Source: Escherichia coli 042
Lineage (GTDB): Bacteria; Pseudomonadota; Gammaproteobacteria; Enterobacterales; Enterobacteriaceae
NCBI RefSeq assembly: GCF_000027125.1
Contig: NC_017626.1
DNA: 64,000 bases
Strand: one strand, 5' to 3'
Every line of letters starts with the position of its first letter. The first letter of the stretch is position 1. The position numbers were made by a program. Below, piece after piece: positions 39,001 to 45,000 of the stretch.

Positions 39001-42000
39001 GTTTGCGCTCATCAGCAGTCAGCTCATCGCCTTTGGCTTGTTTGCGAACTAAACGCAGTAACTCCTGACGATCAACGCCATTGAGCCAGAATTGCAGGCA
39101 TAACGCGTAATTATCATGAATGATTTCGGTGGTACAACTTAGTGCAATAGTCGGCGGCAAACTAACCTGTGCATCAACGACATCATCTTCTTCAATCGCA
39201 ACAAATAGACGCTCGCTCGCCTCAAGCGGGAAATATTTTCTCATCATCAGGATTTCTCTCCGGCTGCGTTATAAAGCAAGGAATGGCGCTGAAAAAATGC
39301 CTTTAAGGTTGGAATTAACGAGAGCGCCACGTCCAGACATTGCCCACCGAAGTAAGCAAACGCTGCTCCCAGCACACCAAACAGATGACAGAACATGAAC
39401 AGCAATACGATGTAGCCGATTGAGGCGATGGTTTGCGCCACGAGAAAAGCGCGCTGTTTTCCCGCCATCAATAGCAATGACTCCTGAGGGAAGCCCAGCA
39501 TCGAAATCACAATTGCGCCCAGCATCACCTGAATCAGGTCATACGCTTCGAGATACTTAACGCCAAACACCAGCGAAATGAGCGGCTTGCCGACGATCAA
39601 CACCGCGAGCGCCACCAGAATACCGATTCCGCCCGCCAGTAAACCGGACTTCACACCTAACAACCACGGTCTGGTGGTGCGCGGATCTAAACGCATCACC
39701 TCTGGGTAAAAACTTTTACCCAGCAAACCCGCTGGCGTTCCGGCGGCGTCGAAGAATGTCATGGCGATTTTAAATAACCCGGCGGCAGCGGGTCCTAACA
39801 CGATCCCCACCAACACTGTGCTGCACGAGTTACGCGCCGACCAGATGGAGTGGGCAATGTTGGTTGACCAGACAAAACTCCACGCGCCTTTAATGTATCG
39901 GGCAGACTCAAACAGATTCAATTTGAAGGCGTTATGGATATTTCGGCGGCGTAATTCGCGCGCGGCAAACCACCAGTACATGGTGCCGCCAACCAGATTC
40001 GACACGTACCAGGCAATAACAAAACCCGCAAAACCAAAGTCAAAATACCAGGCTACGACGCTCCCCGCTGCGCGCAGAAAAGGTTTCGTCGCCTGCTGTA
40101 CAGCAATTAAATCGAAGCGATCTACCGCACGCAGAATGCCGGTCGGCGTGGAGGAAGCCATTGAAGGAATGAGCGTGCAATAGAGCGCTGCCAGCCAAAA
40201 GCTTTGGTCATCCAGACCTAATGAATGGGAAAGGAATGGCAGTAAGGCAATGCCACCGACAATCGCCACCGCGCCGCTGACGATATCCAGCGAGAAGGAA
40301 AATGAGACGACATTGCGGAATTGCTGCGGATTATTGTTGGTTAATGCTGGTGTTCCGTACTGAACCACCAGTTGCCATGTCTGAAACTTAATAAAATCGC
40401 TGATCGACTTGGCGTACGATTGCACAATCACCAGTACGCCAAACATGGCGGGCGTCATCCCTTTACCGGCACACGAGAGCGCCAACAGACCCAGCAAGGC
40501 GCTCACGACATTACTGGAGCCTAACCAGGCGCTATTGCGAATAATGGTGCGAAACGCGCCATCTGCAAACCAATGTTTGATGTTAAAACCCGCCAATTCA
40601 GCCTGACCTTATCGTTGATAGTAAAAAGTATCCCGCCAGCCTTAAGTTAAACTTCGGCGGTCAGAAACGATGGCAACCAGAGAAACCGCCTTCTGTGCCT
40701 GTTCCAGCACTTCGCTGTAGGGCGCTCTGGAATCAATCTCAAGAATTTTTGTGCCGTTATAGCCAATCTTCGACATGACACCGATTTTGTCCTGCAGCTC
40801 GGCATAGTCATGGTCAGGCTTGCGGGAGATGGCAGTCTCAATATCAATGCCCAGGCGAATAATTAATTCCGGGCGATATTGCGCCATTTGTTGGTATAAA
40901 CGCCGTTCGCGCTGCGCCAGAAACATGCTGATTTTCCCGGTCGCACGTTCGACGCCAATCCCCGGTCCATCATAATAAAAGCCCGAAATTTCAGCCTGCG
41001 GGAAGCGATCGCTGACCACCAGAACGCCACTTTGCGCCAGTCGCTGAACCTTGCGTAGATTCGCCATTCTTCGCAGCGAGAAGCAGTACATAATCACCGC
41101 CGCCCATAGCGCCGGAGATTTGGTTTTCATGCTTTGGGTTTTCGAGGATTTGGCCGCCAGTCGCCGTTCCAGCCAGACGCCAACCAACGGCAATCGTTTG
41201 ATTTTGTCGCCGTCTTCGCCGGAGAGCAGCCCCAGATAGCGCCGCTCGGTTTGCCAGTGTTGTTGCAGCGATTTCACCAGGTCGGTGGTCAGTGTGGATT
41301 TACCGGTGCCATCACACCCGACCACCGCAATCAGCCCCGGAATGTAGTTGGGCTGCGGCGCGGTTGTACTATTAACAGTTTGAGTTTGTAGTGCATCCAT
41401 TCGTTAAATCATCCCCTATCCATTTTGGTGATCAGGAAAGCGCGGCGTGAATTGCGCGTAGTGACGCTTGCAGAATTTCATCGGCGGGGTGTCGCCCATC
41501 CAGTTCAAGGATCTTTGCGCCATTGAATGTCAGTTGCGGCGTAACGGCGATTTTTTCCTGTAACGCTGCCAGTTGGTGGTCAGGTTTACGCGCAAACGCG
41601 GTTTGTTCATCAATGCCAAGACGAATCAACAATACGGGCAAATAAGATGCCATCCATTGGTACAGCTTCAGCTCGCGCTGCCTTAACATTTTTATCCAAC
41701 CGTTACCGCCCGTGGTTTTTGCCAATTGCGGGCCATCAAAGCGAAACCCCGGCACTTCAACCTGCGGGTAGCGGTCGGTGATGAGCAGAAAGCCTTGCTG
41801 GCTTTTACACAACATTTTGCGAAACTTGTACGCCCGCCAGCAGGAAAGCAGATAGATAACCAGTGCAGTAATATTGCCAGGCGGTGTTGAGGGCTTTTCG
41901 TGCACATGTGCCGCTTTACTTCGCAGATAACGCCCAAAAGGTGCGCCAATAACAGGGAGCTGTGAAATCCATTCGCCAATTCGCCCGGACGATTGCCCGA

Positions 42001-45000
42001 GATAAATGTGTTCTGTTGGCATTCTTGCTGCCAGTTCATTTACCAGGCTTGCCGTGAGGGTCGATTTACCTGAACCATCACATCCTACAATGGCAATAAC
42101 ACGCACTGGCGTGGAATTAATTATTGACATATTACGTTGATTCACGAAAAACCCGGCAGTAAATAATGTATTGAATATTACGTGGTCCGTGCTCAGAATA
42201 TCCGTTCAACCTTATTGTGACAATGGTTAATTGTGACATTGACCTGAATTACGCTTTCATAAAAACATATTAACCAAATAAATATTTTTAATGGATATTT
42301 AAATTAAAGGATATATTCATGCAGTCAATAACACCTCCATTAATTGCCGTTATTGGTAGCGATGGTTCAGGCAAGTCAACGGTGTGTGAACATCTTATTA
42401 CCGTTGTCGAAAAATATGGTGCTGCCGAAAGAGTTCATTTAGGAAAACAGGCCGGAAATGTCGGTCGTGCAGTGACAAAATTACCGTTGATGGGAAAATC
42501 CTTACATAAAACAATTGAACGAAATCAGGTGAAAACAGCAAAAAAATTGCCTGGACCAGTTCCGGCGCTGGTAATTACAGCGTTTGTCGCCCGTCGCTTA
42601 CTGCGCTTTCGTCATATGCTTGCCTGTCGTCGTCGCGGGTTAATTGTTCTAACCGACCGTTATCCTCAGGACCAAATTCCTGGCGCTTACGATGGTACGG
42701 TGTTCCCACCTAACGTTGAAGGTGGTCGTTTTGTCTCATGGCTGGCAAGCCAGGAACGTAAAGCGTTTCACTGGATGGCGAGCCATAAGCCTGATCTGGT
42801 CATCAAACTCAATGTTGACCTTGAAGTTGCCTGTGCACGTAAACCCGACCATAAACGGGAATCGCTGGCGAGGAAGATTGCCATAACGCCACAGTTAACC
42901 TTTGGTGGTGCACAACTGGTTGATATCGATGCCAATCAGCCACTGGAACAGGTGTTGGTTGATGCAGAAAAAGCGATTACGGATTTTATGACCGCGCGTG
43001 GTTATCACTAGTCAAAAATGGAAATGCCCGATCGCCAGGACCGGGCATTTTCAGGAAGGTTAAATCAACTGCAATGCTATCCAGTACAGCCCACCAGAAA
43101 GAAAAATTGCCGCCGGTAAAGTAAATACCCACGCCATCAGGATGCTGGTTACCGTTTTACGCTGTAACCCACCGCCGTCCACCACCATCGTCCCTGCAAC
43201 TGCAGACGAGAGGACGTGTGTTGTGGAGACGGGCATCCCAATATAACTGGCAAGACCGATAGACACTGCCGCCGTCATTTGTGCCGCCATGCCTTGCGCA
43301 TACGTCATGCCGCGCTTACCAATCTTCTCACCGATGGTCATCGCTACACGACGCCAGCCAATCATGGTGCCAATGCCGAGCGCCAGTGCTACCGCCATGA
43401 TGATCCACACCGGAGCGTACTCAATGGTGCTTAACATATCGCTGCGAAGTTTTTTCAGCAGGTTCTGGTCTTCTTTACTGACGCCTGGCAGTTTCGCTAG
43501 CTTCGCGGAGGTATCAGAGATGCACAGCATAATGCGGCGCAGCTGGCTGCGCTGACTCACGCTTAACGGCTCGTAACTTTCCATATTGCCTGGCAGCATC
43601 GTTTTAACGCGCGCAATAGCATCAAAGGTATTTGCCGGATGACAGTGAAACTCTGTTACTTGCGTGCCATCAGTCGATGCTGCAGGCAATGGAGGTTCCA
43701 TCGCAATCAACTTCTGCGGCAGTTCAGGATGCTGTTGCAGGTAGTGTTCGAAGTTGGTAACGGCATCGCGGGTACGGGTAATTTCATAGCCGGACGCATT
43801 CATATTGACGACGAAGCCAGCAGGGGCAATCCCCACCAGTACCAGCATTACCAGGCCGATCCCTTTTTGTCCGTCGTTCGCGCCGTGCGAAAACGCCACG
43901 CCCGCAGCGGAAACAATCAGCGCAATACGCGTCCAGAATGGCGGTTTACGTTTGCCTTTTTTCTTTTTGCGATCTTCCGGAATGCGGTGAATACGGTCAC
44001 GCTTTTTCGTCCCGCTCCAGTAGCGTCGCAGCAGGAATATCAGGCCTCCCGCAATGACCCGGCCGACGATAGGGGAAACAATCAGCGAGGAGAAAATTTT
44101 GGTCACTTCACGCAGGTTTAACGCATCCATCACCGATGAGCCGGTTAACAGCGCGTTGGTTAAACCGATGCCGATAATCGCACCAATCAAGGTGTGCGAA
44201 CTGGAGGCCGGTAAACCGAAGAACCACGTTCCCAGGTTCCAGATAATCGCCGCCAGCAGCATGGAAAAGACCATCGCCAGGCCGTGGGTTGACCCCATAT
44301 TCAGCAACAAATCGGTTGGCAACATATGGACAATGGCATAGGCAACGCTAAGTCCGCCCAATAACACGCCAAAAAAGTTAAAAAATGCCGCCATCACCAC
44401 AGCAAGTTGTGGTTGCATGGCACGAGTATAAATAACGGCTGCCACCGCATTCGCCGTGTCATGAAAACCATTGATTGCTTCGTAGAACAACACAAATGCC
44501 AGAGCAAGCAATAACAAAAGCCCTGTGTATATATCAAGGCCAACAAATAAATTTAGCATATATTAGATTACGCCATTTTGAATTTACGAACGGACGCATT
44601 ATCAGTGACTTTAACGGCATGGGCAAAGTGAAATATCATTTTTTAACGATAAAAAGAGTGTTATTTCTTGTGTATCAGACAATAAGCATTCATTCAAAAC
44701 CTTTAGAAATAATCAAAACACAGGTATTCCACTGGTTAATATATTCACATATGAAATGAATAAATATTGGAATATATAAATATTGAATATTTTGATTAAT
44801 CCCCGTACTGATTATTCTTCATAATCAGTACGGGGTTGCTACAACATGTATTACTTTTTCACCACAATTAACGGTTCAATATCACTCTCTTTTTTGATGA
44901 CCAGTGATTCATCACCGCGCAAACACGTCCCACCGTAGTTGCCGCCAACGGTGAAGGTACATACCTGAATGTATTTACCGTCCACTTTCGGCAAACACCA

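Follow-up and report, generated by a model that had tools for sequence, protein, structure and literature searches.

Thymidylate-Kinase-Fold P-Loop Paralogs YghR, YghS, and YghT as Candidate Head-Group Kinases of the Escherichia coli Ceramide Locus

Three P-Loop Paralogs and Their Operon

The window analyzed here is a 64,000-nucleotide (nt) stretch of the Escherichia coli 042 chromosome (contig NC_017626.1) of the non-K-12 type, in which the genes follow the order gsp/sslE, glc, yghO, a lipid cluster, yghQRS/yghT, pitB, gss, and hyb. Our subject is the set of three small P-loop proteins encoded beside the lipid cluster, namely, YghR (40642–41400, minus strand, 252 amino acids), YghS (41432–42145, minus strand, 237 amino acids), and YghT (42319–43011, plus strand, 230 amino acids), with yghR lying 31 nt downstream of yghS and yghT transcribed divergently from both. 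The initial annotation of this DNA had described these open reading frames (ORFs) as paralogs in tandem and divergent arrangement, and the coordinates proved exact; the pairwise alignments and phylogeny that it proposed as a check likewise bear it out. BLASTP over approximately 218 residues gives identities of 34–44% (YghR–YghS 44%, E = 1e-63; YghS–YghT 36%, E = 2e-53; YghR–YghT 34%, E = 6e-48), similarity so far above chance that the three are unambiguous paralogs. In a neighbor-joining tree YghR and YghS form sister groups and YghT has an ortholog clade of its own, and the three are ancient paralogs that diverged early. The region 40000–43500 matches many complete E. coli genomes at 100% identity, and in the RefSeq annotation of identical DNA the yghR position is called an ATP-binding protein, the other two genes being named yghS and yghT.

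All three proteins carry the Walker A motif GxDGxGKST (in the variants GCDG[ST]GKST and GSDGSGKST) and a [ST]DR[YF]PQ motif, the two features on which the family had first been recognized, together with further common DG and RKPDH motifs. Across 71–82 orthologs per paralog group, conservation is at least 97% in each group for the Walker A lysine K27, the acidic P-loop residue D23, the D124–R125 pair of the DRX clamp, and the lid residues R186-K187-P-D-H, with R125 reaching 100% in all three groups (S, R, and T). Since the catalytic motifs are kept in at least 97% of orthologs, all three proteins are expected to be active, and we predict each to be catalytically competent. The positions that are invariant in a group-specific manner (48, 51, 134, and 162) fall in or near the predicted acceptor-binding half, and all three proteins are basic (pI 9.6–9.9).

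YghS has a P-loop thymidylate kinase (TMPK) fold, with the three layers, P-loop, DRX motif, and lid of that superfamily, and a fold search with it returns kinases, not ABC ATPases. Searched against the PDB, the family profile retrieves thymidylate kinases (E ∼ 3e-5). The best weak family matches are to dTMP kinase (NCBIfam TIGR00041), whose curated cut-off of 83.25 lies far above the 32.3, 24.3, and 25.8 bits that the three proteins reach. The Pfam Thymidylate_kin match (PF02223, independent E-value 0.013) covers only the P-loop, at residues 21–63, and identity to solved TMPKs is 14–22%. The segment after strand 2, which in TMPK-type enzymes is the REPGG segment that binds TMP, reads YLGxxxG in YghR, YghS, and YghT. 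The Pfam ABC_tran and NCBIfam ABC models align with just 20–30 residues around the P-loop, at 12–18 bits against cut-offs of 190–476, in line with the early remark that ABC-transporter signatures are lacking; the fold, signature motif, Q-loop, H-loop, and family-level score of an LptB-like ABC ATPase were all looked for and not found. GTPase and AAA matches in NCBIfam and Pfam are similarly confined to the P-loop, and neither database gives a match to the LCB5/DAGK catalytic domain in any of the three proteins. Because dTMP kinase is the best weak match, the PDB profile retrieves TMPKs, and the ABC, GTPase, and AAA matches are restricted to the P-loop, we assign YghR, YghS, and YghT to the TMPK superfamily; they are neither ABC ATPases nor GTPases. 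Thus, the early suggestion of a small kinase family stands insofar as this is a triplicated family with a TMPK/nucleoside monophosphate (NMP) kinase fold, and is not supported insofar as a nucleotide kinase was meant. By the curated TIGR00041 cut-off the three are not dTMP kinases, and RefSeq very probably misnames YghS and YghT in giving their product as “dTMP kinase”. We also considered the three as homologs of the Caulobacter ceramide kinase CpgB and rejected this, CpgB being an LCB5/DAGK-family enzyme.

The yghS gene is the first of a minus-strand operon of seven genes, yghS-yghR-yghQ-CHAD-like-ytfJ-like-lptF2-lptG2, separated by gaps of at most 45 nt or overlapping. YghQ (39247–40596), encoded 45 nt downstream of yghR, is a MOP/Wzx-family flippase-like membrane protein, as judged by a weak NCBIfam match to MOP flippases and a Pfam Polysacc_synt_3 match on the Serratia ortholog. 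A “hypothetical protein” of 274 amino acids follows (38423–39247), the start of its gene overlapping the yghQ stop by 1 nt, and then a YtfJ-family protein (37851–38414; TIGR01626, 212 bits against a cut-off of 151) with a signal-peptide-like N-terminus. The operon ends with paralogs of the LptF and LptG permeases, lptF2 (36750–37820; TIGR04407, 318 bits) and lptG2 (annotated at 35674–36753; TIGR04408, 308 bits). We note that the mechanically called lptG2 ORF (35674–36834, GTG start, 386 amino acids) would overlap lptF2 by 85 nt, and that RefSeq gives a protein of 359 amino acids starting at 36753, with the usual 4-nt overlap. In Caulobacter, LptF2/LptG2 homologs are required for sphingolipid transport, and LptF2G2 pulls down the housekeeping LptB (bioRxiv 10.64898/2026.04.12.717747).

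The initial annotation had passed over the 274-residue protein, which yields no match in an NCBIfam scan or in a PDB sequence-profile search with its family. Only 2 of 23 family members match Pfam CHAD (PF05235) at E ≤ 0.1, the best at 3.9e-3, with no significant match to the profile, and one UniRef homolog is named “CHAD domain-containing protein”. Its identity was resolved by a fold search with an AlphaFold2 model (predicted local distance difference test score 94.3), in which the protein has the two four-helix bundles of the CHAD fold. The model thus indicates a cryptic CHAD-like helical domain of the polyphosphate-binding type. CHAD domains are specific polyphosphate-binding modules that hold the chain along conserved basic surfaces and are typically encoded with polyphosphate enzymes (PMC6537752), and the invariant residues of the 274-residue family (R88, K92, R95, R196, K197, H105, H193, and H237) include basic positions that would fit such binding. 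The presence of this cryptic CHAD-like protein in the operon points to oligo- or polyphosphate chemistry.

Ceramide Genes and Conserved Synteny

The lipid cluster beside the kinases is a known one, which the initial annotation had also missed: it is the published E. coli B-type ceramide cluster of yghO, aasR, epi, acpR, and spt, and corresponds to ECD_02850 to ECD_02854 of E. coli B strains, the five dihydroceramide-synthesis genes (PMC9386255). These genes have been validated biochemically in E. coli BL21, with SPT, AcpR, and AasR tested in vitro or through expression in E. coli (PMC9386255). In the window they comprise yghO (30042–31184, minus strand), annotated as a homolog of the bacterial ceramide synthase aca/bCerS and named aca, as ECD_02850, in PMC9386255; aasR (31528–33276, plus strand, as the ORF from its first TTG, with the annotated start at ∼31588), encoding the acyl-AcpR synthetase; epi/cerR (33273–34187, plus strand), annotated as the NAD-dependent reductase of ceramide synthesis; acpR (34219–34467, plus strand), annotated as the specialized acyl carrier protein (PMC9386255); and spt (34467–35639, plus strand), annotated as the serine palmitoyltransferase, whose BL21 ortholog ECD_02854 was assayed (PMC9386255). 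Between the convergent spt and lptG2 genes lies a GC-rich hairpin with a 16-bp stem (35642–35676), a likely bidirectional terminator, which closes both the yghS-to-lptG2 unit and the aasR-epi-acpR-spt operon.

At a coverage threshold of at least 80%, the yghRST region is present in 4599 of 5426 complete E. coli genomes and the spt-to-lptF2 region in 4066, such that about three quarters of these genomes carry an intact ceramide-synthesis and export locus. K-12 (L002, 10403–11383) is an exception: IS5 replaces aasR, epi, acpR, spt, lptG2, lptF2, the ytfJ-like and CHAD-like genes, and the 3′ part of yghQ, at a site corresponding to ∼31200–39600 of the window, leaving yghR, yghS, and yghT as orphans with a truncated yghQ. 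As this IS5-associated deletion took most of the locus, its final product is invisible in laboratory K-12.

A profile search of 1.84 billion representative proteins gave 2596 relatives of the kinase family at E ≤ 1e-3, of which 231 are at E ≤ 1e-30, and a scan of one genome per species (GTDB r220; ∼278 genome hits) returned 80 loci. For synteny, we counted genes within 10 kb in those loci that span 20 kb or more, 52 in all, from ∼45 genera or metagenome-assembled genome (MAG) lineages, after annotating ORFs by phmmer with the E. coli locus proteins; two contigs (L006 and L008) are too short to inform on context. The 80 loci are spread over Enterobacterales (Escherichia, Citrobacter, Serratia, Hafnia, Erwinia, Pantoea, Rahnella, Sodalis, Rosenbergiella, and others), other Gammaproteobacteria (Carnimonas, Methylococcaceae, Halioglobus, and, in Rhodanobacteraceae, Luteibacter, Dyella, and Rhodanobacter), and Betaproteobacteria (Nitrotoga, Gallionellaceae, Sulfuritalea, and Rhodocyclaceae), with further loci in Sphingobium, Novosphingobium, and one Planctomycetota MAG.

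Among the 52 long loci, YghR is found in 51, YghT in 49, YghQ in 47, AcpR in 46, Spt in 45, both Epi and the CHAD-like protein in 44, AasR in 43, the YtfJ-family gene in 33 (mostly Enterobacterales), and LptF2/G2 in 30. Gene order is rearranged among E. coli, Serratia, and Carnimonas with the gene set kept, and the T(−)/S(+)R(+) core order is nearly invariant, being preserved in most of the 80 loci; natural S–R fusion proteins also exist (P0121). The tightest module consists of the kinases, YghQ, and the 274-residue protein, usually inside a ceramide locus. The link to a lipid operon put forward in the initial annotation is therefore conserved well beyond E. coli, and what would have told against it, namely paralogs widespread without the lipid genes, does not hold: Spt is within 10 kb in 45 of the 52 long loci, and the K-12 exception is the product of a deletion.

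All ORFs of the 80 loci were clustered and the cluster representatives scanned against NCBIfam, which brought out a set of accessory neighbors, mostly in non-enteric loci: an OlsC/LpxO-like acyl 2-hydroxylase in 17 loci; a DgkA-like protein (Pfam DAGK_prokar) in 15; an LpxE-like PAP2 phosphatase in 12; a second PAP2 protein, with best matches to undecaprenyl-diphosphate phosphatases, PgpB, and LpxF, in 11; an LmtA-like lipid A 1-phosphate O-methyltransferase in 9; a NodT-type outer-membrane factor in 7; and an LptA-like protein in 4. These genes are often directly interleaved with the kinases, as in the order NodT, PAP2, PAP2, yghT, lmtA-like, yghS, yghR, olsC-like, yghQ, spt of L059 and L086, and the slot between yghT and yghS is occupied alternately by the CHAD-like gene or an LmtA-like gene. 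The triplet is interleaved with two PAP2 genes and an LmtA-like gene in the non-enteric Proteobacteria L059 (795–3651), L086, L075, L080, L067, and L090, and a second DgkA-like gene lies beside the locus in Serratia, Pantoea, Erwinia, Rosenbergiella, and Carnimonas (e.g., L003 2279–2644 and L005 12404–12730). Characterized members of these accessory families act on lipid phosphates or lipid acyl chains, and by homology the set would be a toolkit for making, trimming, and capping lipid-borne phosphates, of the same kind as in lipid A remodeling. E. coli-type loci hold no identifiable Caulobacter-type head-group enzymes, and the annotated genes of their conserved set include no glycosyltransferase, CDP-alcohol transferase, or LCB5 kinase.

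In the neighbor-joining tree, the stand-alone YghR/S/T-like proteins constitute clade 1 of two. Clade 2 (P0165–P0270) comprises proteins of ∼500 residues, in which the kinase domain is preceded by a domain of ∼260 residues that carries the motif YCHxKSNxHLxxALxGETDxDLLVD and has no Pfam match; the 274-residue protein was considered as its homolog and rejected (hhalign probability 2.9%). Some clade-2 proteins are fused further, to a MOP/Wzx flippase (P0238, P0249) or a GT4 glycosyltransferase (P0212), and one clade-2 gene, in a Wzx/GT4/Wzy polysaccharide locus (L009, 5721–9482), overlaps the end of the flippase gene. In Wzx/Wzy polysaccharide loci, clade-2 genes also immediately follow the Wzx flippase gene. 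These fusions and neighborhoods tie the whole kinase family to MOP flippases and thereby place it on the cytoplasmic side of a lipid-linked export step.

As regards the surroundings of the kinase genes, the yghS–yghT intergenic region (42146–42318, 173 nt) is AT-rich and divergent; a sigma-70-like match at 42223–42195 would serve the yghS operon. In promoter and terminator consensus scans, matches, this one included, were no more common than in shuffled sequence, the sole noteworthy output of the terminator scan being two long hairpins at convergent gene ends. One is the spt–lptG2 hairpin described above; the other is a terminator-like site (43022–43050) common to yghT and the convergent pitB (43060–44559, minus strand), which encodes a low-affinity inorganic phosphate transporter. 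An ORF cluster of ∼500 residues in ∼10 loci, the first an Escherichia locus, may be pitB, and the pitB–yghT adjacency may be simple synteny. Relative to strain 214-4 (L001, where 10037–11179 corresponds to yghO 30042–31184), coordinates are offset by 6 nt only upstream of aasR, which implies a small indel in or near the yghO–aasR intergenic region. Finally, positions 1–4000 of the window have a G+C content of 35–41%, compared to ∼50–57% across the remainder, and a related strain carries CP4-57-like prophage remnant genes (cbtA toxin, antirestriction) beyond the gsp operon; this segment is probably horizontally acquired DNA.

A Proposed Role in Phosphate Head-Group Building

Starting from the observed paralogy, fold, catalytic-motif retention, operon structure, and conserved synteny of the triplet, we hypothesize that YghR, YghS, and YghT are cytoplasmic TMPK-superfamily P-loop kinases recruited to the sphingolipid pathway, where they phosphorylate ceramide or ceramide phosphate before export, a reading that we hold to be probable rather than firm. 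Lipid rather than nucleotide phosphorylation is suggested because these TMPK-fold paralogs co-travel with the sphingolipid synthesis and export genes and with the CHAD-like protein; what we infer from this setting is the lipid acceptor, how many phosphorylations occur and in what order, and what the CHAD-like protein does.

In the mechanism that we envisage, the products of yghO, aasR, epi, acpR, and spt would make dihydroceramide at the cytoplasmic face of the inner membrane, and the basic kinases YghR, YghS, and YghT, soluble or peripheral, would build an anionic phosphate head group from ATP. Each kinase might phosphorylate a separate acceptor, with three different hydroxyl groups being possible, or the three might act in series, converting ceramide, or ceramide-1-phosphate made by DgkA, to the di- and then the triphosphate by TMPK-type phosphate-on-phosphate chemistry. 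E. coli DgkA phosphorylates ceramide in vitro, and the first phosphorylation could come from a DgkA-type kinase such as that encoded beside the locus in 15 genomes, which is a candidate dedicated ceramide kinase for this step. Of the two options, we favor serial phosphate extension because all three paralogs keep the TMPK arginine and their partner is of the phosphate-chain-binding type. In TMPK, PPK2, and PPK3, the arginine of the DRX motif clamps the donor and acceptor phosphates (PMC12995831). The CHAD-like protein would then bind the oligophosphate group or a polyphosphate donor, YghQ would flip the phosphorylated product, and its extraction and passage to the outer membrane would fall to LptF2G2, probably assisted by the housekeeping LptB. 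Where other taxa encode periplasmic PAP2 phosphatases and the LmtA-like methyltransferase, these would trim or cap the phosphates.

Several observations weigh against this proposal. A full-text search for ceramide di-, tri-, or polyphosphate returned nothing, no lipid with such a head group being reported, and CpgB, the characterized ceramide kinase of bacteria, is of another fold family. With clade 2 located in Wzx/Wzy loci, the family may originally have acted on a glycan or a polyprenyl-linked intermediate, and not on ceramide. Furthermore, nine loci (L007, L063, L067, L071, L075, L076, L081, L085, and L087) have the kinases, YghQ, and the CHAD-like protein with no spt within 10 kb; these exceptions include Sphingomonadales, in which the sphingolipid genes are known to be scattered, and a metagenomic contig encoding a GT4 protein, a T-like kinase, an S-like kinase, a His_Phos_1 protein, YghQ, and a homolog of the 274-residue protein.

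Taking the proposal one step further, the three kinases and the CHAD-like protein could form a PPK3-like machine that polymerizes oligo- or polyphosphate on ceramide, yielding a “lipo-oligophosphate” that is flipped by YghQ and carried by LptB–LptF2G2 to the outer membrane. We consider this extension unlikely; if true, the surface of E. coli and many other Proteobacteria would bear a strongly anionic lipid of a class not known before. In K-12, the orphan kinases might be the source of the PPK1-independent, short-chain membrane polyphosphate of older reports.

Among the rival explanations, the first is that the triplet and the CHAD-like protein are a bacterial PPK3-like kinase for soluble inorganic polyphosphate or ATP regeneration, the sphingolipid position being regulatory or coincidental. 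In Sulfolobus acidocaldarius, PPK3 (Saci_2019/Saci_2020) consists of two TMPK-like paralogs encoded with CHAD, SixA, and PPX proteins, and in PPK3 operons a catalytic subunit goes with a regulatory partner that lacks the arginine (PMC12995831). The PPK3 homolog 2plr is indeed the second structural match, a CHAD-like gene accompanies the kinases in most long loci, and a His_Phos_1 gene occurs in one locus; however, 2plr is matched by the family profile only weakly (E = 0.072) and in the P-loop only, all three paralogs keep the DRX arginine so that no arginine-less regulatory subunit is present, and among the genes identified in the loci, there is no PPX, PPK1, or PPK2. The linkage to the flippase, LptF2G2, PAP2 phosphatases, and ceramide genes is, moreover, much tighter than soluble polyphosphate metabolism predicts, and E. 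coli already has PPK1. Taken together, we regard this explanation as quite improbable.

We are similarly doubtful of a second rival, in which the kinases act on soluble head-group precursors that another enzyme attaches to ceramide or, in a variant, on a polyprenyl- or glycan-linked intermediate. This would fit clade 2, yet the conserved set contains no transferase that could do the attaching (no nucleotidyltransferase, CDP-alcohol transferase, or glycosyltransferase), and the accessory genes point to phosphates carried on the lipid.

The initial annotation had raised the possibility that the three proteins energize the LptFG-like pair, to which the YghQ flippase may be added as a client. The locus supplies no ATPase gene for the LptF2G2 pair, and some distant relatives carry the kinase domain in fusion with a MOP flippase; nevertheless, this role is very unlikely, as the proteins have a TMPK-type kinase fold with no ABC signature and are matched by ABC models in the P-loop only, Caulobacter LptF2G2 pulls down the housekeeping LptB, and the triplet also occurs in loci that lack the pair, which is present in just over half of the long loci. 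That YghR, YghS, and YghT are genuine dTMP or nucleotide kinases, as the RefSeq naming of YghS and YghT implies, agrees with their fold, their P-loop, DRX, and lid motifs, and their best weak family matches, but is least credible of all given the subthreshold scores, P-loop-confined Pfam match, and low identities reported above, the LGxxxG sequence in place of the REPGG-type segment, and the occurrence of three copies in a lipid operon when the E. coli tmk gene lies elsewhere.

Significance and Comparison with Known Systems

In the literature that we searched, YghR, YghS, and YghT are not given a function in any paper, and the CHAD-like protein goes unmentioned. The genes appear in gene lists or screens, among them a K-12 silkworm virulence screen in which they had no marked effect and an FlhDC SELEX (systematic evolution of ligands by exponential enrichment) data set with a peak in the yghS–yghT spacer; the E. 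coli locus is drawn in two papers, in which the head-group genes are not discussed. What would be new here is the assignment of the head-group step to three “uncharacterized ATP-binding proteins” and the recognition of their CHAD-like partner. The proposal makes the testable prediction that the E. coli sphingolipid is a ceramide bearing one to several phosphates. If true, it would provide a second, non-homologous route to anionic bacterial sphingolipids beside Caulobacter CpgABCD, would extend the exaptation of thymidylate kinases, as in PPK3, from archaeal polyphosphate metabolism to bacterial envelope lipids, and would correct the “dTMP kinase” name on YghS and YghT in thousands of genomes. 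As the anionic outer-membrane sphingolipids of Caulobacter affect polymyxin sensitivity and dependence on lipopolysaccharide, the locus may also matter for envelope-targeting drugs in enterobacteria.

Exapted thymidylate-kinase paralogs are already known, and the present case is a conserved triplet dedicated to a sphingolipid export locus. By analogy, its closest biochemical counterpart is the archaeal PPK3. As far as PPK3's description permits comparison, that enzyme has two subunits, one of them arginine-less, whereas YghR, YghS, and YghT are three paralogs that all have the catalytic arginine; the context of PPK3 is phosphate storage, whereas that of the triplet is membrane-lipid synthesis and export, with no PPX linked. 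Compared to TMPK itself, the three proteins carry, between strands 2 and 3, an additional stretch of ∼60 residues that folds into three helices, their NMP-binding segment is replaced, and their genes are triplicated inside a lipid-export operon. Similarly, the 274-residue protein differs from established CHAD proteins (PF05235; CtCHAD 3e0s, RcCHAD 6qv5, and YgiF) in falling below the Pfam threshold and in being linked to flippase and lipid genes rather than to TTM, PPK, or PPX, and is a predicted polyphosphate binder.

For the chemistry proposed, animal phosphomevalonate kinase offers a mechanistic precedent, being an enzyme of NMP-kinase fold that converts a phosphomonoester to a diphosphate on a non-nucleotide substrate. 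A further parallel is lipid A remodeling (LpxK, LpxT, LpxE/F, and LmtA), from which relatives of LpxE, LpxF, and LmtA directly neighbor the triplet in other taxa. Neither phosphomevalonate kinase nor the lipid A enzymes have detectable specific homology to YghR, YghS, and YghT, so that the resemblance is one of analogy only, and LpxK is absent from the top 60 structural neighbors of YghS.

The system that would correspond most directly in its place in the pathway is that of Caulobacter crescentus, where the sphingolipid locus likewise has spt, acpR, aasR, cerR, bCerS, a flippase candidate, and LptF2G2. In E. coli-type loci, the P-loop triplet and the CHAD-like protein are found instead of the CpgA-, CpgC-, and CpgD-type enzymes, which are absent. 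YghR, YghS, and YghT would thus occupy the same predicted position as CpgB/CpgA–D, that of head-group building, and are expected to give rise to an anionic product here as well.

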